Of a stretch of 11,624 nucleotides of DNA, positions 46 to 11,127 are shown in pieces. Below the pieces are notes generated by a model that ran no database searches, was not told where the DNA came from, and saw nothing but the letters and a program-made list of their open reading frames with translations. The stretch is from Candidatus Nanohaloarchaea archaeon (lineage in GTDB: Archaea; Nanohalarchaeota; Nanosalinia; Nanosalinales; Nanosalinaceae): assembly GCA_046497485.1 (NCBI GenBank), contig JAWOFP010000026.1, positions 1 through 11,624 on the forward strand, given 5' to 3'. The stretch's first letter is position 1. Every line of letters begins with the position of its first letter. A program made the translations under genes and the position numbers.

Positions 46-2106
46 ATGATATATTACGGTTATAACGGTTTCAAAGGCCAGTCTGCTATTGAGTATTTGA
101 TGACGTATGGTTGGATGCTTCTTGTTGTTGCTATCGCTGGTGGTGCGGTTTTCAGTGTTGTCGGCGATCAAAATGTTGAAAGTGTGAATGGTTTTACCGG
201 TGATGATGTTCTGGTAGATAATTTTGGTTTGAACAATGATGGAGGGCTTGACATGGTTTTGAGGAATACTGCTTCTGAAACTGTAGAAGTAAACAGTGTT
301 AATGTGACTGATGGCGGCGATTATACTGAGTTCGTGGGTGAGCGGGAGGTTGATGTCGGTGATACGGATAATATTGAGTTGCCCTTTGTTTCTGAAACCG
401 AGGGCACTAATGATTTGGATGTTGAAGTCGATTATAGTGTTGGCGGGTTAGATAATTTACAGGCTTCTGGAACGATTACCGGCGGATTGCAAATTACGGA
501 AACCAGCACTGTTTCCGGAACAGTCTCCGCCAGTCCAGGATGGGAAAATGTAGAAGTAAGAATAAAAGATGGAGAAACAATCGAAGAAAGAGTTCATACG
601 GATGAAAACGGAGAATACTCAGCCAATATTGAATCAGGGACTTATGATTTTGAAGCAGCTGGAGTAGAAGCAACTAGCATTAATGCTGATGAAAGTATTC
701 AACTGGATTTCGATCTAGGCTCAGAAGAAGTAATTAAGGACGGAACAACTGAAACAACATTCAGCACAGTAACATTGAGTGACTGCGAAGCAGACGATCG
801 AGGACCATCCGATATGACATACGCAGAAACATCTGATGGCGAACTACAAATAGCAAGCTTAGATCAACTCCAATGTATGGAAGAAGGCCTGGGAGACGAC
901 TATGTATTAACACAGGATATCGACGCTTCAGGAACAAGCGAATGGAATGTATTACAATCAGGCAAGGAAATGACAGAAGAAGAAGATGATTACTTTGGAT
1001 TTGATAAAGGCGATCAAATCGAATTACTATATTCTATACAAGAAATTAAAAGTGTTGTAGATACAGAGACAGATGAAGACGTAGATGTCAAAATAGTAAG
1101 TAATGAAGAGGGTATTATTGAAATTGATACGGAATCTGAACCAAATGACATTGAAATTACATATACAATTGAAGAACATGTACGTGGATTTAAACCAATT
1201 GGTGAATATGATACAGAATTCACAGGTAGTTTCGATGGACAAGGATATGAAGTAGATACATTATATATTGATAGAGTTGAAGAGAATATTGGATTATTTG
1301 GTTTCACCGAAGGAAGTATCGTTAAAAATACTGGTTTAGTTAATAATGATATAACCGGTGCTAATAGTCGTGTAGGTGGGCTTGTTGGACGTAATGCTGG
1401 TACAGTGAGTGACTCGTATGCTACTGGAAGTGTAACTGGTTATGGTAGAGTAGGTGGGCTTGTTGGAAGTAACCGTCCAGATAGTGAAGTGAGTGACTCG
1501 TATGCTACTGGAAGTGTAACTGGTGATGGTAAAGAGGTAGGTGGGCTTGTTGGAGATAATCAGGAGAGTACAGTGAGTGACTCGTATGCTACTGGAAGTG
1601 TAACTGGTGATGATTATGTTGGTGGACTTGTTGGACGCAATTATGAGAGTAATGTGAGTGAATCGTATGCTACGGGTGATGTAAGTGGAAATGGTGAAGT
1701 TGGCGGTCTTATTGGATTTTCGCGGGGTGGACTAGTAACTGATGTTTACGCTACTGGTGATGTGAATGCTGAAGATCATGTCGGTGGACTCGTAGGCAAG
1801 ATTTCTTATGAGGCTGACTTAGATAATGGATTTTCTACAGGTGACGTAACTGGTACCACCGATGTTGGTGGGTTACTTGGTAGTAATGAATATCCGGATG
1901 GTATGGTGAGTGATTCGTATTGGGATGATGAGGCATCGACCGTTACGGAAGACGGTGAGGAAAAAGATAACTATTCTGTGGGTGGAACCGCCCTAACCAC
2001 CAGTGAGATGCAGGGAAGTAGTGCTGAATCAAATATGGATTTTGACTTCGAGAGTGTTTGGGAGGTAGTTGATAGTGATTATCCTAAACTTGTGAACCTC
2101 CCGTAG
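46..2106 (+). CDS. Class III (type IV pilin-like) signal peptide surface protein with a carboxypeptidase-regulatory-like beta-sandwich and C-terminal GLUG-repeat beta-helix; putative adhesin
   Basis: N-terminal KG|QSAIEYLMTYGWMLLVVAIAGGAVF (prepilin cleavage site plus hydrophobic helix); TVSGTV...TDENGEYS...GTYDF segment; YVLTQDIDAS, FTGSFDGQG and repeated VGGLVG-N...VSDSYATGSVTG units; very acidic. Confidence 0.85.
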   Translation: MIYYGYNGFKGQSAIEYLMTYGWMLLVVAIAGGAVFSVVGDQNVESVNGFTGDDVLVDNFGLNNDGGLDMVLRNTASETVEVNSVNVTDGGDYTEFVGEREVDVGDTDNIELPFVSETEGTNDLDVEVDYSVGGLDNLQASGTITGGLQITETSTVSGTVSASPGWENVEVRIKDGETIEERVHTDENGEYSANIESGTYDFEAAGVEATSINADESIQLDFDLGSEEVIKDGTTETTFSTVTLSDCEADDRGPSDMTYAETSDGELQIASLDQLQCMEEGLGDDYVLTQDIDASGTSEWNVLQSGKEMTEEEDDYFGFDKGDQIELLYSIQEIKSVVDTETDEDVDVKIVSNEEGIIEIDTESEPNDIEITYTIEEHVRGFKPIGEYDTEFTGSFDGQGYEVDTLYIDRVEENIGLFGFTEGSIVKNTGLVNNDITGANSRVGGLVGRNAGTVSDSYATGSVTGYGRVGGLVGSNRPDSEVSDSYATGSVTGDGKEVGGLVGDNQESTVSDSYATGSVTGDDYVGGLVGRNYESNVSESYATGDVSGNGEVGGLIGFSRGGLVTDVYATGDVNAEDHVGGLVGKISYEADLDNGFSTGDVTGTTDVGGLLGSNEYPDGMVSDSYWDDEASTVTEDGEEKDNYSVGGTALTTSEMQGSSAESNMDFDFESVWEVVDSDYPKLVNLP
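1372..1690 (+). repeat. Intragenic tandem GLUG-coding repeats, period about 78-87 bp
   Basis: Identical 36-mer GTGAGTGACTCGTATGCTACTGGAAGTGTAACTGGT at 1405, 1489, 1573; identical 18-mer GTAGGTGGGCTTGTTGGA at 1372, 1450, 1537; a fourth diverged copy follows. Confidence 0.95.
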
Positions 2107-2496: not shown

Positions 2497-2595
2497 ATGA
2501 GTATGACGGTTGACGACGAAAACAAAGTGCAGGGCATCGTCCTTTTGACGGATGAGGCCTCCAAATTTCTAAACCCGAGAGAAGAGATCGCGTAA
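2497..2595 (+). CDS. Putative 32-aa small ORF or gene remnant (MSMTVDDENKVQGIVLLTDEASKFLNPREEIA)
   Basis: AGGAGG at 2486-2491, 5 nt before ATG; acidic; VDDENKVQGIV resembles the CBS-domain VVDxxGxLxGIV motif. Confidence 0.3.
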   Translation: MSMTVDDENKVQGIVLLTDEASKFLNPREEIA

Positions 2596-2724
2596 CATTT
2601 CGATTAGTTCGGGACTTTCACAGGCCTGAGAATCTCCCAGTGTAGGTAGTTCGGCGGTTTCGGAGTATCGGAATATATGTACTATGAGTTGTTATAACAG
2701 TTGACTAGTATACAGGGTATGTAG

Positions 2725-3054
2725 ATGCCTGATCCTGGACATGGTTTTGAACGAGCTTTTGGAATGGTAATCGAGGCAATAGTAGTTGCAGTTCTTTTCA
2801 GTGCTTTCGTTGAAGCGGGTTTGATTCCGAAGATCTACTTTACTCTCTTCAATCTCATTTCGATTGTAGGGCTGGTTCTCTTGATAGAGAAAGCGAAGTA
2901 CTGGGGCTTTGGCTATTTAGCTGGCTGGATACTGGGTCTCGTGTTTTCTCTTGGTACGCTTATTCAAACTGAGTTTATAGGACTGTTTGATCTTTTCCTG
3001 TATGGAGCTGTAGCAGCAGGAACCATCTATGTCAAGATCAAAGTCCGTATCTAA
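2725..3054 (+). CDS. Hypothetical integral membrane protein (about 4 TM helices)
   Basis: 109-aa ORF, four hydrophobic stretches, basic C-terminus. Confidence 0.75.
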   Translation: MPDPGHGFERAFGMVIEAIVVAVLFSAFVEAGLIPKIYFTLFNLISIVGLVLLIEKAKYWGFGYLAGWILGLVFSLGTLIQTEFIGLFDLFLYGAVAAGTIYVKIKVRI

Positions 3055-3173
3055 AATCCGGTTCAGAGAACTTATTTAAAAATCATAGACCAATCTTCAC
3101 TTGAAAAACCAAACGAAGGAAGGAGAGGCGAAAATCACGGTAAAGAAGAGTGTTGAACCGCTGATTTGTCGGT

Positions 3174-3194
3174 GGGTCCTGCCAAATAATTTTG
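3174..3194 (+). repeat. tRNA-3'-end-like direct repeat, copy A
   Basis: GGGTCCTGCCAAATAATTTTG; 15 nt identical to copy D, with a similar T-rich flank. Confidence 0.8.
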
Positions 3195-3337
3195 GGTTCA
3201 GTGTTACCTATTCTCTATTTTTAGCCCCTCTACATCAAAATCGGTTTTTTGTCCGGTCTTTATTAATTGCTTATCTCAATATGGGGGTGTGGAAACTGTC
3301 GGACAAAATTGTAAAGTTTACCTGAGAAAATTCTCTT

Positions 3338-3901
3338 ATGGAACTTAGAATAGCTAAAAAACAAGAACTGAAAGAATTAGTAGAATTTGACAGAAACTAT
3401 GCAGGCAGTCATGCAACTACAGAAGAATTTCAGGAGAGATTTGGCAAATGGCCTGAAACATTCATCATTACTACAGAGGACGGAGAAATCATCGGAGATG
3501 CAAAAGGTAAAATAGAAAGTGAGAGCTGTATGGGTCTTCAGTCAATAGCAGTAAAAGAAGGTTACAAAGGTCAGGGAATCGGAACTAAAATACTCAAATA
3601 TTTTGAAGATAAAGCCAAGAAATATGCAGTTAAGGTCACGATAGCATCAGCAGATAATGTAGAAGAATTCTACCAAAAGAACGGTTATGAACCCGTCCAG
3701 ATAATGCTACAAGTAAATAAGGATGAATTACCTGAGAATTACCAGCAGGAAGAAGAAATAGTTGATGAGAAAGATGTGGACCAAGATACAAAATTTCTAT
3801 ATGCTGACTTCGATGAATACAGTAAAGAACTGCGAGACAGGTTGAAGGACAAGTTCAACGCTTTTGAAGTAAATACAATCTATGAGAAGAATATTAGTTA
3901 A
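3338..3901 (+). CDS. GNAT family N-acetyltransferase
   Basis: Motif A (IAVKEGYKGQGIGTKIL) and motif B (NVEEFYQKNGYE), plus a C-terminal acidic extension. Confidence 0.9.
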   Translation: MELRIAKKQELKELVEFDRNYAGSHATTEEFQERFGKWPETFIITTEDGEIIGDAKGKIESESCMGLQSIAVKEGYKGQGIGTKILKYFEDKAKKYAVKVTIASADNVEEFYQKNGYEPVQIMLQVNKDELPENYQQEEEIVDEKDVDQDTKFLYADFDEYSKELRDRLKDKFNAFEVNTIYEKNIS

Positions 3902-3903
3902 TT

Positions 3904-3918
3904 ATTCGGGTCCTGCCA
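3904..3918 (+). repeat. tRNA-3'-end-like direct repeat, copy B
   Basis: ATTCGGGTCCTGCCA, 14/15 identical to copy D; fills most of the 20-bp gap between the convergent GNAT and vapC stops. Confidence 0.8.
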
Positions 3919-3921
3919 TTC

Positions 3922-4293
3922 TCAAATTGTTTGAACTTTTAAATTCTGTTTTTTTTTAAAATCATGGTCTTTTGTGATTATTTCTACATTGTTAACTAGG
4001 GAGATGCCGGCTATCATCAGATCGAAGTCGCTTATTTCTGCGTACTTTCCTTTTAGTTCTGCTACTTTTTTGGCTGCCTCGTTACCTGCTTCTAAATGTT
4101 CAAGTTCATCTAGCAGCGATTCTACTTCTTTTTCTCCTTCTTTAGTTCTTCTGGCTAGTTTTGTTCCTCGATAAAGTTCGCATTGGACAGGAAAGCAGGT
4201 GCAAAAAGTCGCGTTATCTTCTGCCACTATTTCCTCAATCTTTTCATCTGCACGGAGAAGAGCTATTACAGCAGAGGTATCTAAAAGTTTCAA
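3922..4293 (-). CDS. vapC: VapC PIN-domain toxin
   Basis: LLDTSAVI, ELYRG, DFDLMIAGISL and ITKDHDF PIN motifs; TTG start 6 nt after the antitoxin stop. Confidence 0.92.
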   Translation of the reverse strand: MKLLDTSAVIALLRADEKIEEIVAEDNATFCTCFPVQCELYRGTKLARRTKEGEKEVESLLDELEHLEAGNEAAKKVAELKGKYAEISDFDLMIAGISLVNNVEIITKDHDFKKKQNLKVQTI

Positions 4294-4299
4294 ATTATT

Positions 4300-4509
4300 T
4301 CATTCCCTCATTTCAAAATCGTCTCTCTCATTTTTCAACTCTTCTTCTACTTCGCCGATTTCAGGGAAGGAGCCGCTAAACTTCTGCAATTCTTGCTTTC
4401 GATCCTCTGAGATTCTCTCCACTACGTCGGAGAAACTTTCTTTCTCCCTCTTTAATTTTTTTAATTTCTCATAAGCAGTTTCTCTAAGTGAAACTGTTTT
4501 AGTTGCCAT
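4300..4509 (-). CDS. vapB: VapB antitoxin (archaeal DUF217/VAPB_antitox type)
   Basis: MATKTVSLRETAYEKLKKLKREKESFSDVVERI matches the KTI-L-..AYE-L...K...ESFSDVI pattern; directly upstream of the PIN gene. Confidence 0.92.
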   Translation of the reverse strand: MATKTVSLRETAYEKLKKLKREKESFSDVVERISEDRKQELQKFSGSFPEIGEVEEELKNERDDFEMRE

Positions 4510-4540
4510 CCACAGATCTGTGTATTGAATATTTTTATTT
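4508..4540 (-). promoter_or_regulatory. vapBC promoter with palindromic operator
   Basis: Perfect 12-bp palindrome CACAGATCTGTG (4511-4522) next to the vapB ATG; AT-rich TATA-like stretch about 25 nt upstream on the minus strand. Confidence 0.6.
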
Positions 4541-4580
4541 CTTTCTCTTAGTTCAGAATTAATATAATTTTCTACTATTT

Positions 4581-4603
4581 CGGTTCAAATCTGGGTCATG
4601 TCA
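4581..4603 (+). repeat. tRNA-3'-end-like direct repeat, copy C (degenerate, retains T-loop)
   Basis: CGGTTCAAATCTGGGTCATGTCA; GGTTCAAATC is a canonical T-loop; three substitutions versus CCGGGTCCTGCCA. Confidence 0.65.
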
Positions 4604-4688
4604 ATTGCATTTAAGTTGATTTTATAGAATTGCCGGAGCTGCCGCGTGATCCCTCAGTGATTTAATTCTCTTTGGTTATAACCTTGTC

Positions 4689-5279
4689 ATGAAGCTTTTC
4701 CTTTGTAGGCATGGAGAGACTGAGCATAATGACAACGGCATAGTGCAGGGCCAGATGGACACTAAAATTAATGGAAAAGGGAAGCAACAGGCCAAAAAGC
4801 TCAGAGATAGACTTGCTGAAGAAAATATAGATAAAGTATACTCCAGTTCTATGACTCGTGCTATAGAGACTGCAGAAATAGTCGCTGAACCACATGATAT
4901 TGAAATAGAGGAAACTGAGGAGCTAAAAGAAGTTGCAAGAGCTAAATTTGAGGGAGAACGATCTGAAGACCTGATAGAAGAAATAACCAGATCAGAAACA
5001 GAAGACTACTTGTGGAAACCAGAAGGGGGCGAAAGTTTAGAGGAACTGAAAGAAAGAGGAGCCGACTTCTTCAACACTATAAAAGAAGAACACGAAGGAG
5101 AACAAGTAGTTGCCATTTCTCATGGAGGAACAATAAGCAGCACCTTATTGGGAATATTAGAACATTCCTCCAAAAACAGTTACAGAATAAACCAGGAAAA
5201 CTGCAGTATCAATAAATTAACATGGAATCCTGACAGAGGATGGTCAATTCATTCAGTAAATGATAGCTCACATCTATAA
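4689..5279 (+). CDS. Histidine phosphatase (phosphoglycerate mutase-like) family protein
   Basis: LFLCRHGETEHN, YSSSMTRAIETA, PEGGES and ISHGG motifs. Confidence 0.93.
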   Translation: MKLFLCRHGETEHNDNGIVQGQMDTKINGKGKQQAKKLRDRLAEENIDKVYSSSMTRAIETAEIVAEPHDIEIEETEELKEVARAKFEGERSEDLIEEITRSETEDYLWKPEGGESLEELKERGADFFNTIKEEHEGEQVVAISHGGTISSTLLGILEHSSKNSYRINQENCSINKLTWNPDRGWSIHSVNDSSHL

Positions 5280-5308
5280 TTGAATCCGGGTCCTGCCAAA
5301 TATTTTTG
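5280..5308 (+). repeat. tRNA-3'-end-like direct repeat, copy D (right boundary of the accessory region)
   Basis: TTGAATCCGGGTCCTGCCAAATATTTTTG begins immediately after the phosphatase TAA. Confidence 0.8.
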
Positions 5309-5382
5309 TTCGACCAATTTTTCTGTTGTAGTTATCCGGCAAAGGAAAAAAATAAAAATTATTGGGAAAAGGGTTTAAACCG

Positions 5383-5607
5383 TCATTCCAGGCCTTCTGT
5401 CGGACTGTCTCCTGTTTCTGAGTCGGATGTGTCTCCTGATTCTCCTTCAGGGTCTGATTCTTCTCCTGTATCAGGACTGTCTTGCATTCCTTCTTCAGTA
5501 TCTGGATTGTCCAGTTCTTCTGAAGGTTGTGCTCCGTCTCCTCCAAGACATCCTGAAGTCACTAAAACAACGGCTATAAGGCCTAGGAGTACTACTTTTG
5601 AATCCAT
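5383..5607 (-). CDS. Small putative lipoprotein with acidic disordered tail
   Basis: Signal peptide with lipobox-like VTSGC; AGGTGA SD upstream of ATG; D/E/S/G/P/T-rich tail. Confidence 0.8.
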   Translation of the reverse strand: MDSKVVLLGLIAVVLVTSGCLGGDGAQPSEELDNPDTEEGMQDSPDTGEESDPEGESGDTSDSETGDSPTEGLE

Positions 5608-5712
5608 TTAATCACCTTTCTACTTGATCAGATAGTTTCCTAATATAAAAACCGTGATCCGAAATTAGGCCTTAAACAGACCCAAATCTACTGTACTTGA
5701 GAAATATCAGGG

Positions 5713-7053
5713 CTATAACTGGTTGAAAGCTCTTCCAACTACTTCGCTTAAGGCAGGATGAATGTGAATCGCGTCCTTAATTTCACTGATTCCTCCGCTT
5801 GAACGCATTACTGGAAGGACTTCATGAATTAGTGTTGAGGCCTCAGGCCCGATAATATGGACTCCTAGAATCTCATCTTCTTTAGCCAGGACTTTGACAA
5901 ATCCGTCTTCTTCTTTCATGGCTTGGCCCATACCTGTTTTTTCGTAATCGTAAACTGACTTTCTGTATTCTGTGTTTTCTTCCTCTAGTTCCTGCTCGGT
6001 CTTCCCGACTCCTGCGATCTGAGGACTGGTAAACACTGCATGAGGCATAGCTGTAAAGTCTGCATCTACATCCATTCCGTTCATATTTTTGTAGACGATT
6101 GAGGCCTCGTAATTGGCAGAGTGTTTGAACATGAAGTTGTCGGCGATATCTCCAAGAGTGTAAACTCCTTCAACTGAGGTTCTCATTCCTTTGTCTGTTT
6201 CAATAAATCCTCTCTCAGTCAAGTCAATAGAAGTATTCTCCTCTAAATTGAGGTTATCTGTGTTTGGAACTCGTCCAGTAGCCATCAAGATTTCATCGGC
6301 TCTAACAGTCTCTCCATTATTCAAGTGAGCGATTTTCTCTCCATTTTCCTCCTCGATTTTTTCTGCTGAGGCCTCTAGAACTACATTGTATCTTTCTTTA
6401 GCTAATTCTGTGAAAGTCTCAGACACATCTCTGTCTTCTCTTTTAAGCAGTTTTTCGCCCCTCTCAACTATAGTTACATCGACCCCCATCTCGCCGTAGA
6501 AAAATGCCATCTCTGCAGCGATATAGCCTCCGCCAACAATCACAAGCGAATCAGGCTTCTCATCTAGTTCCAGTGCATCCTTGCTTGTCAGATAATCTAC
6601 ATCTTCAACTCCATCAACTGGAGGGATGAAAGGCCTTGAACCTGCTGAAATCAGGATTTTATCGGCAGTCAGTTCCTCGCCATCAACTTCAATTACTTTG
6701 TCATCTTTGAATGAGGCCTCTGATCTGTAAAGATCATAGTTTTCCGCATTTTCTACACCAGATTTGATTGCTTTAGCATCTTCAGCCACATTCTCATTTA
6801 CTTCTTCAATCATTTCTTCAAAATCAATTTCATCAATGGACGCTTTGATCCCGAATTTTTCTGATTCTCTGATCTCTGAGGCGACTTCTGCTCTGTGAAT
6901 CAACATTTTTGACGGTATACATCCTCTGTTCAGGCAGGTCCCGCCTAAAGGCCCTGGTTCGATTAAAGCTACTTTATTTCCTTTAGAATGCATGGCTGAT
7001 GCGACATCGAGGCCTGATCCTGCTCCAATTACAATTAAATCGTATTCTTTCAT
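5713..7053 (-). CDS. Class I pyridine nucleotide-disulfide oxidoreductase (dihydrolipoamide dehydrogenase / mycothione reductase-like)
   Basis: IGAGSG FAD motif, GGTCLNRGCIPSK redox pair, VGGGYIAAE dinucleotide motif, ATGRVPN, C-terminal HPALSE dyad. ATG at 7053 (MKEYDL) preferred over GTG at 7065. Confidence 0.92.
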   Translation of the reverse strand: MKEYDLIVIGAGSGLDVASAMHSKGNKVALIEPGPLGGTCLNRGCIPSKMLIHRAEVASEIRESEKFGIKASIDEIDFEEMIEEVNENVAEDAKAIKSGVENAENYDLYRSEASFKDDKVIEVDGEELTADKILISAGSRPFIPPVDGVEDVDYLTSKDALELDEKPDSLVIVGGGYIAAEMAFFYGEMGVDVTIVERGEKLLKREDRDVSETFTELAKERYNVVLEASAEKIEEENGEKIAHLNNGETVRADEILMATGRVPNTDNLNLEENTSIDLTERGFIETDKGMRTSVEGVYTLGDIADNFMFKHSANYEASIVYKNMNGMDVDADFTAMPHAVFTSPQIAGVGKTEQELEEENTEYRKSVYDYEKTGMGQAMKEEDGFVKVLAKEDEILGVHIIGPEASTLIHEVLPVMRSSGGISEIKDAIHIHPALSEVVGRAFNQL

Positions 7054-7112
7054 TCTTTTGCTCACTTATAGTATAGAATTAGTTGCGGCTGTTTATGATA
7101 TTGGGCTTTCCT

Positions 7113-7655
7113 CTAGGTAAACTCTTCAGCTATCTTCCTGAAGTTTTGGTTCCAAATCTCGATTCTGGATTCTGAAGATGATTCAGCAAATGTTTTATCG
7201 GAATCCTCAAGCATCAGGACTCGATCCCAGTTTCTCTCATCTCCTCTGATTTCGTCGGATATTTTGATCGGTACTTTGAACTGATATTCCTTAATCTCGC
7301 CGTTTGGAAGGCCTAGAACTGTTCCTACTTCAAAATATCCTGTTCTCTTCTTTCCATTAATGAGCTCCAGAAGTTTTTCTGCAGGAATTTCCTGGTCAAA
7401 ATAGCTTATGTAAGGTCCTGGAAATCCGGGAACTGCGTCCAGATACAGGCTGTGGTCTTCCCTAATTACAGGTTCGTCGATATCTTCAATTATCTGTTCT
7501 ACAGTGTGCCTAGCTATTTCCATACTGTTTGAGGCCTGAATTTCATTATAGTTTTTGTCCAGCTGCTTAATTTCTATATTTGTTTTCTTGAATGCTTTTT
7601 TCGCTGAACTCAATTTGTCGGAATTACTGGTTATCAAGTAGATTGTATCTGTCAT
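7113..7655 (-). CDS. Ham1/RdgB family non-canonical purine NTP pyrophosphatase
   Basis: ITSNSDK, EIQA, EDHSLYLDAVPGFPGPY motifs; the usual C-terminal SHR motif is diverged. Confidence 0.85.
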   Translation of the reverse strand: MTDTIYLITSNSDKLSSAKKAFKKTNIEIKQLDKNYNEIQASNSMEIARHTVEQIIEDIDEPVIREDHSLYLDAVPGFPGPYISYFDQEIPAEKLLELINGKKRTGYFEVGTVLGLPNGEIKEYQFKVPIKISDEIRGDERNWDRVLMLEDSDKTFAESSSESRIEIWNQNFRKIAEEFT

Positions 7656-7682
7656 AGAGAAAAAGAAATTAGGAAATGCGGT

Positions 7683-7766
7683 TTATTCGTCGTCTTCGTG
7701 GTCGTGGTCTTCATCTCCTGTCAGATCTACTCCGCAAGTCTTGCAGACTTTTTCTTCATCGCTCAT
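7683..7766 (-). CDS. Unannotated 27-aa CxxCG/HxH putative metal-binding microprotein (MSDEEKVCKTCGVDLTGDEDHDHEDDE)
   Basis: ATG 1 nt after the thioredoxin stop; GAGGTGA SD 9 nt upstream; fills the gap in a co-oriented gene run; acidic composition. Confidence 0.75.
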   Translation of the reverse strand: MSDEEKVCKTCGVDLTGDEDHDHEDDE

Positions 7767-7767
7767 T

Positions 7768-8043
7768 TTAGTTTGTCACCTCTTCATCGTTGGCCCAGGC
7801 CTTCAAGGTTTCATAATCTGTTCCTCCACAGATCCATTCCTCTGTCTCTGTGTTGTAGAAGAACGGTACTCCACCACATTTGTCGTCTCCATCTACATCA
7901 TAATAGACTTCTTGGTTGTCTTCATCGTTCCAGACTTCTAGTTTCTGGACATTGAATCCTTCTTCCTCTTCGAGTTTCTCTACTTTAGGCCTCATTGATT
8001 CGCAGTGAGTGCATCCATCTCCGTAAAATTCGTATAAAGTCAT
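7768..8043 (-). CDS. Thioredoxin/glutaredoxin-like protein
   Basis: EFYGDGCTHC active site and cis-Pro motif GVPFF; ATG at 8043 (MTLYEFY) more plausible than the 8097 start. Confidence 0.88.
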   Translation of the reverse strand: MTLYEFYGDGCTHCESMRPKVEKLEEEEGFNVQKLEVWNDEDNQEVYYDVDGDDKCGGVPFFYNTETEEWICGGTDYETLKAWANDEEVTN

Positions 8044-8106
8044 TCTTGAACCACAAAGATTAATTGTGAGGCCTTCTTTTTCAATCTTCCATAACAACTA
8101 TGTTAC

Positions 8107-8913
8107 ATGCTGGAGTTCATATGGAAATATTTGATAGGACCGATAGTCGCGGAAGCAATAGGAGAATCAGCAATCTGGAGAGGAGTCGAGTCAGTAGCAG
8201 GTTACAATATCTATAATACCTTTGCTTGGATGATTTTAGGCCTATCAACAGTAATTCTAATCAAAAAATTGTTTGAAAAGTATGAAATTGATTTTACTCC
8301 GGAGACAGCTTTCAATTTAATACCTGTGATAATTTTGGCAGGAGTCTTGAGAGCGGTTCAGGACGCAGTAAACCTTCCCTTACTTGTAGAGATTCTGCTG
8401 ATTACTCCGGTAATCTATATTTGGATAGCATTATTTACAATTAGTTTACTTGCTTTGAACCAGTTTAGAGGCCTTAAATTCAGATATATCAACTCGGTAA
8501 TAATACTGGCGGTATTAGGTCTTCTATTCTGGATTCAGGCCCCTTTAATTCCTGTAGCAGCTGTAACTATTGGAGCAGGTGTGATTGGAGGCCTTTACTA
8601 CTTCTTAACTGAAGAAACTAGTTATGGTTCGAGTCCTCTAACCTTTATGGTTATGAGCCAGTTCTTTGAAGCCTTTTCATCAATGTATGGGCTTTCTCAA
8701 GGATATAATGCTCGACAGCTATTGACGTCCACAGCTGTAGAGATTATGGGTCCTCTTGGCTTCCTTCTTGTGAAATTATTTGTGCTGGGCGCTGCCTTGA
8801 AGATTTATTTTGACTTGGAGGAGATATGGCGGTCTATACTGCTTGTGGCGCTCTACTCGATCGGTTTCGCGACAGGTATCAGAGTGATCTTGAGAGCTGC
8901 CCTAGGCGTCTGA
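8107..8913 (+). CDS. DUF63 family archaeal integral membrane protein
   Basis: GYNIYNT motif, AGVLRAVQDA, LLITPVIY, C-terminal GFATGIRVILRAALGV; multiple TM helices. Confidence 0.8.
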   Translation: MLEFIWKYLIGPIVAEAIGESAIWRGVESVAGYNIYNTFAWMILGLSTVILIKKLFEKYEIDFTPETAFNLIPVIILAGVLRAVQDAVNLPLLVEILLITPVIYIWIALFTISLLALNQFRGLKFRYINSVIILAVLGLLFWIQAPLIPVAAVTIGAGVIGGLYYFLTEETSYGSSPLTFMVMSQFFEAFSSMYGLSQGYNARQLLTSTAVEIMGPLGFLLVKLFVLGAALKIYFDLEEIWRSILLVALYSIGFATGIRVILRAALGV

Positions 8914-8924
8914 AAAATACAAGA

Positions 8925-8934
8925 TTATTTATGC
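8925..8934 (+). promoter_or_regulatory. Possible TATA box for a leaderless transcript
   Basis: TTTATG at 8928-8933, 24-29 nt upstream of ATG 8957; no SD visible. Confidence 0.4.
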
Positions 8935-8956
8935 AAAGCTCTCTTAATTAGTTTGT

Positions 8957-10291
8957 ATGAGGAAGGCCTTGCTGGTTTCGACCGTTTTTCTATTAATGAT
9001 TGGAACTGTTTCAGCTTTTGAAGTATCTGTAAATAGTTTGGAGCAGACTGCTACGACAGATCAGCCGGCCGTATTCGAGATTGAGGTCGAAAATACCGGT
9101 AGTACTGAGTCAGATTACCGTTTGAATATGCAGGACTACCACAGAAGCCAGTGGTACAGTTACGATGAAAGAATCAATATTCAACCAGGCGAGACACGAG
9201 CATTTGCATTAGAAGTCAGTCCTGGAAACCAGGCGGTTCAGGACCGTTACAACGCGGATTTCTCAGTTAGAGAGTCTGCAACTGATCAAGTTTTCCAAGG
9301 ATCGCTTAACTACCGTGTTACTCGTGACAGAGAACTGAATTTAGAATCCTTCTCAACGGATATATCTGAAGTAAAGCCAGGTGAAGAAGTTGAGGCCTCA
9401 GCCACAGTTAGAAATGTAGGCCCTTCAACGCTTCAAGACCCAGAGATAACATTTAATGGGTTAAATCAGTCAAAAGTCTCAGATCTTGGTCCGATAACAG
9501 GCGGAGGCACACGCTCAGTCACAGAAACTTTTGAAATTAAACAGTTCGAGTCTCCAGGAGTCAAAGAAATAATTTTAGAGGTAGAAGACAGGACCTATAC
9601 TGAGGAAGTTGAAGTAGAAGAAATTGAGAATATCTCTGAGAAAGTTGAAACAGATAACAGAGTTTTTGTAGTGAATAAAGAATACAGGTTCGAGAATGAT
9701 GGTAATACTCAAAGAAATTATACTTACGAAGTTAAAGTTCCAGATTATTTAGCTCCTGTAACTTATACTGAAGACGCGGAAAGATTCAGTTCTGAAAACG
9801 GTACAGGCTACAGATGGACAATGAATTTAGAGCCTGGAGAAACCGAAACAATTGAGACTAGGACAGATTACTGGATACCGATTACAGGCCTCGCAGTATT
9901 ATTCGTAAGCTTTATCGTGCTCAGAAAGATTACCTCAAGCGTCTCAGTCGTGAAAAAAGTAGAGGAAAGAGGCGACAAAGTAATAATTACTTTAGAGGTT
10001 GAAAATTCAAGTTCCAAGACTTATGACGATGTGCTGCTTGAAGATTATGTCCCAAACATTGCATCAGTCAGTTCAAACTTTGACATGGCCACACCTGAAA
10101 TTGTGAACGAAGAAGAAGGCACAAAACTCAAATGGTGGATCACGGATCTAGGCCCAGGAGATCAGAGAATCCTCAAATACACATTAAGGCCTAAAGTAGA
10201 GGTAGAGGGCGGGGTCACATTAGATCCTGCAGAACTGAAAGATGGTGACGAGACCTTGAGTCTGACCGATCAAGTGAAGGCTCGGTTCTAG
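8957..10291 (+). CDS. Secreted single-pass membrane protein with tandem Ig-like (CARDB/NEW3-like) domains and a C-terminal DUF11-like domain
   Basis: Sec signal peptide (VSA|FE); V-N-G and I/L-PGE motifs; TM helix YWIPITGLAVLFVSFIVLRK; post-TM VVKK...LEDYVP...WWITDLGPGD domain. Confidence 0.8.
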   Translation: MRKALLVSTVFLLMIGTVSAFEVSVNSLEQTATTDQPAVFEIEVENTGSTESDYRLNMQDYHRSQWYSYDERINIQPGETRAFALEVSPGNQAVQDRYNADFSVRESATDQVFQGSLNYRVTRDRELNLESFSTDISEVKPGEEVEASATVRNVGPSTLQDPEITFNGLNQSKVSDLGPITGGGTRSVTETFEIKQFESPGVKEIILEVEDRTYTEEVEVEEIENISEKVETDNRVFVVNKEYRFENDGNTQRNYTYEVKVPDYLAPVTYTEDAERFSSENGTGYRWTMNLEPGETETIETRTDYWIPITGLAVLFVSFIVLRKITSSVSVVKKVEERGDKVIITLEVENSSSKTYDDVLLEDYVPNIASVSSNFDMATPEIVNEEEGTKLKWWITDLGPGDQRILKYTLRPKVEVEGGVTLDPAELKDGDETLSLTDQVKARF

Positions 10292-10306
10292 AAACCTTTA
10301 GTAGGG

Positions 10307-10314
10307 TATAAAAA
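10307..10314 (+). promoter_or_regulatory. Possible TATA box of tRNA-Tyr
   Basis: TATAAAAA 26-33 nt upstream of the mature tRNA 5' end. Confidence 0.4.
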
Positions 10315-10339
10315 AACTTCAGGCCTATTTCTTTCATAC

Positions 10340-10413
10340 CCCGACTTAGCTCAGTCTGGCAGAGCGTCCGCCTGTAGAGCGGATTGTCCCAGGTTCAAAT
10401 CCTGGAGTCGGGA
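10340..10413 (+). tRNA. tRNA-Tyr (GTA), intronless, CCA not encoded
   Basis: Cloverleaf: acceptor CCCGACT/AGTCGGG, D arm GCTC/GAGC, anticodon arm TCCGC-CTGTAGA-GCGGA, T arm CCAGG-TTCAAAT-CCTGG; C1:G72, A73 and short variable loop match archaeal/eukaryal Tyr identity. Confidence 0.97.
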
Positions 10414-10718
10414 CTCTGAAAATATCTTTAGGTATGGCGAATATTTTTCTGTTATAAAAGAACAAAGGCCTCATTTCTTTTTCAGTATCTTTCCTATATC
10501 TGGGAGGGATGCGAGGGGCGGCAGGATTCCTTTATTGCTTGGCGGCTGGAGGAGTTTTGCGGCCTCGAACTATTTTTACTTATTCACAGAAAATTGTTTA
10601 GGCCTAATTTTTTGGTGTTTCAGCGGTTCTTGGTTGAATTTGGGCCTGAGTTTGAATGGAGTTCGGGAAACGGCCTTTAAAAGGGAGTCCGCATCTTTGG
10701 TTAGAAGGTGATCTGTGA

Positions 10719-10877
10719 ATGGACATGGTTGAGTCTGGAACTGTTGGAAGGCCTTTGAAACTTGGAAAGTGCCTGGTCTGCGGTGACCGGGTCTTCAAAA
10801 ATCAGAGCTATATTGAAGCGGAGGAGGGACACGCTCATAGAGGCTGCGCTTTGGAGGTGGCTGACGGTGAGGCCTGA
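10719..10877 (+). CDS. Unannotated 52-aa putative zinc-finger protein (CLVCG...HAHRGC)
   Basis: MDMVESGTVGRPLKLGKCLVCGDRVFKNQSYIEAEEGHAHRGCALEVADGEA; AGGTGA SD upstream; CxxC-x18-HxxC spacing. Confidence 0.7.
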   Translation: MDMVESGTVGRPLKLGKCLVCGDRVFKNQSYIEAEEGHAHRGCALEVADGEA

Positions 10878-11127
10878 AAGTGTGGAGAGTTATTCTCCGA
10901 CGGTGGAGGATGCCAGAGAAAAAGTGAAGGCGGTAAGGTATAGATATGATTTGAGTAGTGAGGAAGCTGAGAAACTGGAGTCTTCGTTGATTCAGGCCTC
11001 ATCATTGAATGAGTTCGTGGATGTCTTGGAGTCAAAATTGATGGAGTTCACACTGCGGAAAGGTAAACCTTCGAGAAGAGAGTTTGAGGAGGTTAATACC
11101 GAGGCATTCGCCGGTTTTTCTGCTTAA
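10867..11127 (+). CDS. Hypothetical protein (86 aa), start re-called at GTG 10867
   Basis: GGAGGTGG SD just upstream of an in-frame GTG; overlaps the zinc-finger stop by 11 nt; acidic, helical. The 10762 extension is basic and overlaps the zinc-finger ORF. Confidence 0.65.
   Translation: MRPESVESYSPTVEDAREKVKAVRYRYDLSSEEAEKLESSLIQASSLNEFVDVLESKLMEFTLRKGKPSRREFEEVNTEAFAGFSA

Follow-up and report, generated by a model that had tools for sequence, protein, structure and literature searches.

AGGCCT is a highly iterated palindrome in genomes of one nanohaloarchaeal family

Results

AGGCCT sites at the starting locus

The locus examined here is an 11,624-nucleotide stretch of DNA from a Candidatus Nanohaloarchaea archaeon (GenBank assembly GCA_046497485.1, contig JAWOFP010000026.1; this whole stretch is hereafter the window), in which a sequence-only reading had listed 27 copies of the palindrome AGGCCT where about one would be expected, and had likened them to HIP1, a highly iterated palindrome (HIP) of cyanobacteria. 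Each of the 27 listed positions proved to be an exact AGGCCT, and base composition predicts 0.91 copies in the 5,610 bp that they span (5390-10999, 42% GC), in agreement with the earlier estimate. The claim that copies lie on both strands, in differing frames and in intergenic DNA also held, as 22 of the 27 fall within open reading frames (ORFs), with both strands and each of the three codon phases represented (encoding xGL, [EKQ]Ax or RP), and the remaining five lie outside called genes. Start-to-start gaps between these copies run from a minimum of 82 to 493 bp. The left 5,389 bp of the window hold three copies, compared with 18 predicted at the genome rate. Within that part, the gene for a GLUG-motif surface protein has 1 of its 17 available places filled and is for that reason likely recently acquired DNA, and the four called genes between 2628 and 5389 have no place able to hold AGGCCT synonymously (Table 1).

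Table 1. Genes and AGGCCT sites of the window, with available places meaning those at which the protein permits the hexamer
Feature	Position	Strand	AGGCCT sites and remarks
GLUG-motif surface protein (686 amino acids)	46..2106	+	copy at 885..890
Two AGGCCT copies, 2555 and 2622	2555..2627		non-coding stretch 3' of the GLUG gene; 67 bp apart
AGGCCT-free stretch	2628..5389		longest in the genome, 2,768 bp between sites; genes for a GNAT acetyltransferase, a PIN-domain protein with antitoxin-like partner and a histidine phosphatase
AGGCCT copies, first 14 of 27	5390, 5579, 5667, 5838, 6102, 6369, 6631, 6714, 7010, 7309, 7532, 7797, 7987, 8069
AGGCCT copies, last 13 of 27	8238, 8469, 8589, 8964, 9393, 9886, 10187, 10321, 10466, 10600, 10749, 10870, 10994
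Acidic lipoprotein-like ORF (74 amino acids)	5383..5607	-	2 of 2 available places filled (LGL, EGL)
Pyridine nucleotide-disulphide oxidoreductase	5713..7065	-	6 of 7 filled (SGL, EAS four times, RP)
Ham1-family pyrophosphatase	7113..7655	-	2 of 3 filled
Thioredoxin-like protein	7768..8097	-	3 of 3 filled
DUF63 membrane protein	8107..8913	+	3 of 5 filled
Ig-like/DUF11 membrane-anchored protein (444 amino acids)	8957..10291	+	4 of 4 filled
Transfer RNA (tRNA) gene	10340..10413	+	non-coding copies on either side, 10321 and 10466
Cys/His ORF (52 amino acids)	10719..10877	+	copies at 10749 (RP) and 10870 (final codons and stop)

AGGCCT is in excess throughout the source genome

The source genome (G000; 967,558 bp in 66 contigs, the window being contig C64, and 88% coding by our own gene calls) contains 3,249 copies of AGGCCT, or 3.36 per kb, and all 66 contigs are rich in it at 1.8-5.8 per kb, which refutes the idea that the enrichment is confined to the window. 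It is the commonest hexamer of the genome and exceeds expectation 21.1-fold under a mononucleotide model, 14.8-fold under a first-order and 6.4-fold under a second-order Markov model, whereas every other palindromic hexamer reaches at most 2.2-fold by base composition. The other 15 N-GGCC-N classes stay at or below 1.5 times expectation, and 70% of all GGCC in the genome sit within AGGCCT. All 16 N-AGGCCT-N classes occur, with 269-572 copies each; the flanking bases are unconstrained, a mild excess of A at +3/+4 being the sole preference around the site. CGATCG stands at 0.59-fold, and GTGCAC, ACGT and GGGCCC belong to the words that this genome avoids most.

Coding DNA carries 2,803 copies, compared with 390 after synonymous-codon shuffling (maximum 423 in 20 shuffles; a 7.2-fold excess), and spacers carry 431 where 14 are expected (30-fold). 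These values, together with the Markov comparisons, bear out the earlier suggestions that the excess is genome-wide and that amino-acid usage alone is an unlikely cause. The sequence-only reading had named disappearance of the enrichment under a dicodon-preserving shuffle as a refutation, and here the outcome was divided. Under a strict dicodon-Markov null trained on G000 itself, the excess is no more than 1.9-fold and 1.6-fold in the two testable phases, because AGGCCT dominates the dicodon counts on which that null is built; when the codon-pair usage of a non-rich relative (see below) is applied to the same proteins, 146-168 copies are expected and 2,822 observed, an 18-fold excess.

Richness is restricted to one family and patchy within it

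Twelve of 70 genomes of the phylum are AGGCCT-rich (G000-G003, G005, G010, G022, G049, G050, G057, G058 and G060), with about 2-4.7 copies per kb (from rounded genome sizes) and 4-17 times the count of a reversed control word. They are independent assemblies, four of them single contigs, and all 12 belong to one family, in keeping with the lineage-specific signal that had been proposed; in one genus (g2), two of six genomes are rich. Genome G004 is intermediate, with 762 copies, and the other 57 do not exceed 1.6 times the control word. Richness was seen too over 20.8 kb of Ca. Nanosalina sp. VS9-1 (L390), a complete genome. A quick tree built on RpoA1 (28 rows) places seven rich rows, G004 and four non-rich rows together in one branch of 12 (support 96), where G004 and rich G003 are close sisters. 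Of 80 metagenomic loci picked up with RpoA1, one came from a near relative, and it was not enriched. Viral contigs searched for three copies near one another gave chance matches only, which is uninformative on nanohaloarchaeal viruses.

Over 14.5 kb of aligned genes, G004 retains 4 of the 30 sites of G003. In a rich/weak pair of loci, which were drawn from the same species collection as the genomes and are not independent of them, motif third positions were kept in 8 of 21 cases, compared with 48 of 120 outside the motif. Because they are kept no better than other positions, the loss of AGGCCT in the sister genome is neutral decay.

Specificity is graded among the rich genomes, being strict for the hexamer in G000 and extending to half-sites in G005. 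In G022, half-sites are favoured 3.2-3.6-fold, the bare GGCC core is favoured too, and deviations fall mostly at the outer bases. The half-site effect matches on both strands (0.67 and 0.71 in G022), which would point to recognition of the duplex by a symmetric reader. Non-rich relatives avoid GGCC (0.44 in G024, 0.14-0.15 in L393 and L416).

The force on AGGCCT is strong enough to alter proteins

Where the encoded protein permits the hexamer, G000 has AGGCCT at 78%, 65% and 65% of places in the three phases, compared with 3-5% in non-rich G024, and the fill reaches 83-96% where a single synonymous change is enough. Between A and CT, glycine is encoded by GGC 84% of the time (20% without the following C) and GGA falls from 53% to 5%; outside the motif the same codons are at baseline usage. 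Transversion neighbours of AGGCCT are depleted as fully as C-to-T neighbours, and Vsr-like repair of T to C, which had been offered as a cause, would therefore be excluded as the sole one. If the force is selection, fill odds of about 35-45 over baseline would correspond, as a rough estimate, to 2Ns of 3-4 per site. The skew of the AGGCC half-site between replichores was set aside, since it tracks gene orientation and is strand-symmetric after control.

The pressure has shifted amino-acid usage. Observed/expected (O/E) ratios of the dipeptides that AGGCCT can encode are 1.59 in G000 against 0.79 in G024 for RP, 1.42 against 0.99 for GL and 1.73 against 0.99 for [EKQ]A[SLFYWC], and the reversed controls are flat. 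Fill also varies with gene class, at 0.72 in highly conserved genes, 0.73 in core genes and 0.57 in genes found only in G000. These last genes, the GLUG gene and integrated elements show that recently acquired DNA is AGGCCT-poor, and the longest AGGCCT deserts of G000 include the left part of the window and one integrated element. Scarcity of AGGCCT is in this sense a marker of recent gene acquisition, as in a metal-resistance/redox island of G022 (200-227 kb, L069-L070) that is almost free of the hexamer, with 17 copies per 25 kb against about 60. Two related integrated elements, both AGGCCT-poor, lie at C59:5253-13500 of G000 and at 315-327 kb of G022 (L074-L075); they carry an integrase-like gene, a D5-like primase-helicase (52% identical) and many small ORFs, and represent a candidate nanohaloarchaeal provirus or plasmid family.

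Sites are conserved but their flanks are not

Across six pairs of rich genomes, motif third positions were kept in 141 of 159 cases (89%), compared with 354 of 777 (46%) for the same codons elsewhere. G000 and G005 have 216 of about 565 sites in common at saturated four-fold divergence. Relative to the pair mean, four-fold divergence beside shared sites is 0.97 at 0-15 bp (n = 430), 1.01 at 15-40 bp (n = 613) and 1.01 at 40-80 bp (n = 886), followed by 1.05, 1.06 and, beyond 300 bp, 1.02; because the rich pairs are partly saturated (0.43-0.59), a small flank effect could be hidden in these values, while a several-fold drop is excluded. The unchanged divergence of the flanks argues against a ratchet of methyl-directed repair. 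With six bases conserved and their surroundings not slowed, the force would appear to act on those six bases at the population level, through either selection or biased transmission.

Neighbouring sites exclude one another over short distances

Pair distances were examined up to 600 bp. In G000, the density of AGGCCT pairs relative to its plateau climbs from 0.15 at 6-12 bp through 0.25, 0.38 (20-30 bp), 0.57, 0.69 and 0.64 to 0.83 at 80-100 bp and about 1 past 130 bp, whereas three control word sets and the GGCC sites outside AGGCCT give a flat density. The curve follows 1-exp(-d/51 bp) with an amplitude of 1.0 (log-likelihood 3498, compared with 3470 for a step and 3352 for a flat model). 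In G022 and in G005, where the fit uses 40% of the genome, the exclusion length is 21-26 bp and a step model is almost as good. When two protein-permitted places lie 6-12 bp apart in one gene, both are filled in 4 cases (33 expected), one in 56 (37 expected) and none in 20 (10 expected), so a second nearby site is roughly neutral and not harmful, although empty pairs are slightly in excess. The ratio of pairs at gaps of 0-30 to those at 200-230 bases is 0.22-0.66 in all 12 rich genomes (all p < 0.002), 0.52 in G004 (p 0.045), and 0.67-1.0 and non-significant in three non-rich genomes.

No gene tested follows AGGCCT richness

The sequence-only reading had offered methylation or repair as one possible driving process and had suggested a search for a matching cytosine methyltransferase, and this branch of its proposal found no support. 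The only recognisable DNA methyltransferase of G000 is a C5 enzyme adjoining an ATPase on a small contig, and among seven rich genomes it is the single representative, the family being missing from the six others, three of which are single contigs. The N4/N6 family gave one weak match in G000, presumably a tRNA methyltransferase, and none in G005 and G010; the D12 family was found in none of five rich genomes searched, the N6 family is strong in only two of five, and Dam-type and type I families do not follow richness in the 5-6 rich genomes searched. Among recognisable families, then, the methyltransferase that accompanies HIPs is lacking here. MutS is absent from all five rich genomes searched, which together with the undiminished divergence of the flanks speaks against repair, and the absence of DprA from the same number weakens an uptake branch. 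The C5 methyltransferase and its neighbour, a 536-amino-acid AAA ATPase with weak restriction-enzyme matches, form a restriction-modification-like island (L015; G000 C53:98-2932).

A gene profile comparing G000, rich G022 and non-rich G024 returned 54 candidates common to G000 and G022 and missing or weak in G024; it rests on these three, as the sequence available covered 40% of G005 and about 30% of G004. Eight candidates were followed into further genomes, and the other 46 include an HD/dGTPase-like protein, two AbrB-like proteins, a PHP-like protein and a D5-like primase. DnaG (36 of 50 family genomes), Ogt (26 of 50), a small-molecule methyltransferase (17 of 50) and thymidine kinase (18 of 50) all fail to track richness. 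An ADP-ribosyltransferase-like ORF is found in none of five other genomes, two complete rich ones included; a ParB-like ORF is missing from rich G005 and present in non-rich G014; a Cdc6 paralogue occurs in five of five genomes, non-rich included, as does a small helix-turn-helix protein, with G004 and non-rich G061 among its carriers. An 'SPPF' ORF on C17 is cupin-like on inspection, and an RNA polymerase subunit has one rich-specific column that we judged meaningless. PADLOC returned no modification-system match for 13 candidates. The four g21 and two g15 genomes all lacked a match to archaeal DnaG, indicating repeated loss. A 146-amino-acid orphan, 66% identical between G000 (C17:11966-12406) and G022 (L079:12708-13145, + strand), has an N-terminal YHG motif reminiscent of ADP-ribosyltransferase folds; it has no Pfam or PADLOC match and was not found in five other genomes.

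The mismatch endonuclease NucS is near-universal (46 of 50 family genomes) and has no rich-specific residue, and was rejected as the reader. RadC occurs in 43 of 50 genomes (12 of 12 rich and 31 of 37 non-rich) and is lost at the G004 locus and kept in rich sister G003; given its presence in so many non-rich genomes and its want of a rich-specific residue, it was likewise rejected, and is compatible with being necessary, no more. The two genes lie head to head ahead of the RNA polymerase operon (G000 C7:14969-16493; L167:493-1984; G004 C10). radC went undetected in all three g20 genomes, and at 61% identity it evolves faster than the genes beside it (78-87%). L389, titled as a Colwellia metagenome-assembled genome, encodes an 84%-identical nanohaloarchaeal NucS and is likely mislabelled or a mixed bin. 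The reader of AGGCCT may be an allele of a universal gene, the product of a gene missing from the G000 assembly, or external.

Other features of the window and genomes

The proteins encoded in the window are acidic, in keeping with a nanohaloarchaeal origin. Positions 2110-2724 are non-coding, single-copy in G000 and absent from the relatives compared; contig depth there is far above that of the flanks in three of four read runs (628 against 39-105 in run X1), and the stretch may be an element that is conserved, or present in several copies, in the community. No Rfam family matches it at gathering score, and the fold of 2335-2420 does not surpass that of shuffled sequence. The PIN-domain gene and its small antitoxin-like partner occupy 3922-4509, with a similar pair on C51 of G000, and contigs from three read runs skip 4197-4408 in this region. 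A search with ribosomal RNA (rRNA) motifs matched one rRNA place only. An 8,880-amino-acid ORF in G022 (256,299-282,941, - strand) is one of the giant surface proteins of the phylum (PMC10266531).

Discussion

AGGCCT is a highly iterated palindrome in the broad sense, being over-represented beyond what codon and amino-acid usage explain and conserved at individual sites. In nanohaloarchaea it is a strong and apparently unpublished genome-wide signal. The sequence-only reading is in part upheld, as a HIP1-like and lineage-specific palindrome, and in part unsupported, in its methylation or repair branch.

The explanation we place first, with somewhat less than even confidence, is selection for one site of a putative dimeric DNA-binding protein per ~50-100 bp. 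A symmetric protein of this kind would read AGGCCT and need a single site in each such stretch, and the benefit would be shared over a short distance, for example by nucleating a chromatin coat or placing a local protective mark. Selection would then favour changes that create a site where none is near and ignore a redundant one close by, since a benefit shared over ~50-100 bp would fill free stretches and leave a second site without effect. That the reader is a protein, and that it would be dimeric, we infer, the latter from the palindrome and the equal half-site effects. Among the causes named earlier, a chromatin or self-mark role would seem to fit the short-range exclusion best. Several observations weigh against selection for such a function. 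The trait has been repeatedly lost or gained within one clade, a pattern less expected of a chromatin function that the cell needs than of a process that is selfish or can be dispensed with; pair distances show no 10.5-bp helical and no 30/60-bp nucleosome-sized period; the gene for the reader was not found, none of the eight candidates checked out of 54 tracking richness; and in a coarse simulation a linear tract model had an error of 0.085, compared with 0.20 for the selection model.

On the present data, selection is inseparable from biased conversion, that is, a molecular drive without benefit in which a site-recognising factor makes the AGGCCT strand the template over a short patch of recombination heteroduplex; if very short fragments were taken up or transferred with a bias, the effect would be the same. 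We place such a drive close behind selection, as less likely than not. A site present on both strands of the patch would remove the asymmetry and render second sites neutral, and the drive predicts everything observed, including the favouring of every substitution type, the distortion of proteins, an exponential exclusion of amplitude 1 and unchanged flanks. It also predicts patchy gain and loss and neutral decay and suits the repeated losses better than selection does, and the same simulation slightly favoured a linear tract model. Also in its favour, NucS is near-universal, RadC is in every rich genome, cleanly lost in decaying G004 and kept by its sister, and many related strain contigs co-occur within single runs. 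Uptake sequences provide a precedent, since they distort proteomes and seldom occur in transferred genes (PMC2817400), and a pair lying within 100 bp brings no additional uptake (PMC7811141). The precedent is imperfect, however, because uptake sequences are 9-10 bp long and non-palindromic, DprA is absent from the five rich genomes searched, and a range of 25-50 bp is far under the kilobase recombination tracts reported for transformation (PMC7811141). Nor does any gene tested track richness, RadC being common in non-rich genomes and devoid of a rich-specific residue.

An outside source, with symbiont DNA acted on by a protein or mark that comes from the haloarchaeal host or from a resident mobile element, is unlikely. 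It would account for the failure of every tested symbiont gene to track the trait and for patchiness even within genus g2, and the avoidance of GGCC by non-rich relatives looks as if a GGCC-reading system acts in the habitat. Cytoplasmic bridges and trans-cellular methylation have been proposed (PMC11001535), and related integrated elements encoding a D5-like primase-helicase occur in both G000 and G022. Yet the published transfer runs from symbiont to host, the shared element is itself AGGCCT-poor, and the proposal is wholly conjectural, with 8 of the 54 candidates tested.

We consider very unlikely a ratchet of the type put forward by Elhai, in which AGGCCT carries a methyltransferase's mark and errors that create sites are fixed by methyl-directed mismatch repair until sites cover the genome. 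This model does predict saturation near existing sites (PMC4390886), such as the exclusion seen here, a cytosine methyltransferase specific for AGGCCT is known in a bacterium (PMC12128166), and G000 has one C5 enzyme. But no methyltransferase family tracks richness, three single-contig rich genomes are without C5 enzymes, MutS is absent from all five searched, and the strongly lowered mutation that the ratchet needs beside sites contrasts with a four-fold divergence of 0.97-1.01 of the pair mean, in pairs that are partly saturated. Finally, there is next to no chance that the excess simply follows from codon, dicodon or amino-acid usage or arose in assembly, since the one point in favour of such an origin, the small excess left by the self-trained dicodon null, is met by the spacer excess, the spread over three phases and both strands, baseline usage of the same codons outside the motif, the shortfall under the relative's dicodon usage, the 12 independent assemblies and the short-range exclusion.

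HIP1 has gone unexplained for decades, and because nearly all cyanobacterial lineages combine it with methyltransferases, cause and effect are confounded there. Here archaeal genomes of 1 Mb and ~1,000 genes show the phenomenon without a tracking methyltransferase, and rich, decaying and GGCC-avoiding relatives in one clade, even in one genus, amount to a natural experiment on why HIPs exist. Any mechanism has to reproduce the physical length that the exclusion supplies, a decay over about 25-50 bp, and the lack of change in flank divergence disfavours the ratchet, which is the leading published model. We tentatively suggest, while granting that it may well prove otherwise, that AGGCCT is the first archaeal HIP, doing without methyltransferase or MutS, and a genome-wide address for a DNA-binding or marking factor, possibly supplied by the host, that would serve ~50-100 bp per site and be strong enough to rewrite proteins. 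If the reader were identified, a new system of chromatin, protection or gene conversion might come to light in DPANN symbionts. A force of this size also biases the evolution of codons and proteins, which affects the binning and phylogeny of these genomes.

AGGCCT is also a StuI-type restriction site, and sites of restriction-modification systems are usually avoided in genomes. The hexamer and its palindromic recognition are the same, yet no matching restriction-modification pair tracks the rich genomes. Methylated AGGCCT has been reported in Alcanivorax borkumensis SK2 (PMC12128166). The published methylome motif of nanohaloarchaea is GDGCHC, and GGCC goes unmentioned in the excerpts of PMC10266531 and PMC11001535, as do HIPs in that of an archaeal restriction-modification survey (PMC10609329). 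The word archaea occurs in neither PMC4390886 nor PMC5861425, and we found no published account of AGGCCT excess in archaea in a full-text literature search that covered only a minority of subscription journals.

With the uptake signal sequences (USS) and DNA uptake sequences (DUS) of Pasteurellaceae and Neisseriaceae, AGGCCT shares a proteome shifted towards encodable peptides, rarity in acquired genes and redundancy when close (PMC2817400, PMC7811141). It differs in being a palindromic hexamer, present once per 300 bp and without an extended flank consensus, where USS and DUS have 9-10 non-palindromic bp, and in its sites avoiding closeness where genomic USS often lie close together. Of genes linked to competence, DprA was not found in the five rich genomes searched, and RadC is present but near-universal.

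The closest parallels are the HIPs of cyanobacteria. HIP1 (GCGATCGC) and the alternate HIPs are tied to cognate methyltransferases, and a ratchet saturating at about one site per 1,000 nucleotides has been proposed for them (Elhai 2015, PMC4390886); HIP1 shows conservation and kilobase periodicity, and selection on its distribution and a role in chromosome structure have been proposed (Xu et al. 2018, PMC5861425). The alternate HIPs comprise GGCGCC, GCsGC and rCCGGy, GGGATCCC, and CAGGCCTG in Synechococcus sp. PCC 6312. AGGCCT resembles them in being sporadic across lineages and a GC-rich, hexamer-sized palindrome with deviations at the outer bases, as in G022, but theirs have a matching methyltransferase (PMC4390886) and none tracks AGGCCT. 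The octamer CAGGCCTG, in excess in Synechococcus PCC 6312, contains AGGCCT (PMC5861425), and since G000 shows no flanking-base requirement, AGGCCT is not that octamer. Xu et al. call a genome HIP1-rich above an O/E of 16 (PMC5861425), with a null that differs from the one behind our value of 21.1. In contrast to HIP1, AGGCCT belongs to an archaeon, has another 6-bp sequence, comes with no tracking orphan methyltransferase and no MutS (5 of 5 rich genomes), and has as its spacing signal an exclusion over 25-50 bp (at distances up to 600 bp) instead of a period of ~40 kb. Like GCGATCGC, it is a short palindrome, hyper-abundant in all frames and in spacers, conserved past codon needs and lost in some sister genomes, and it works like a HIP while not being HIP1.

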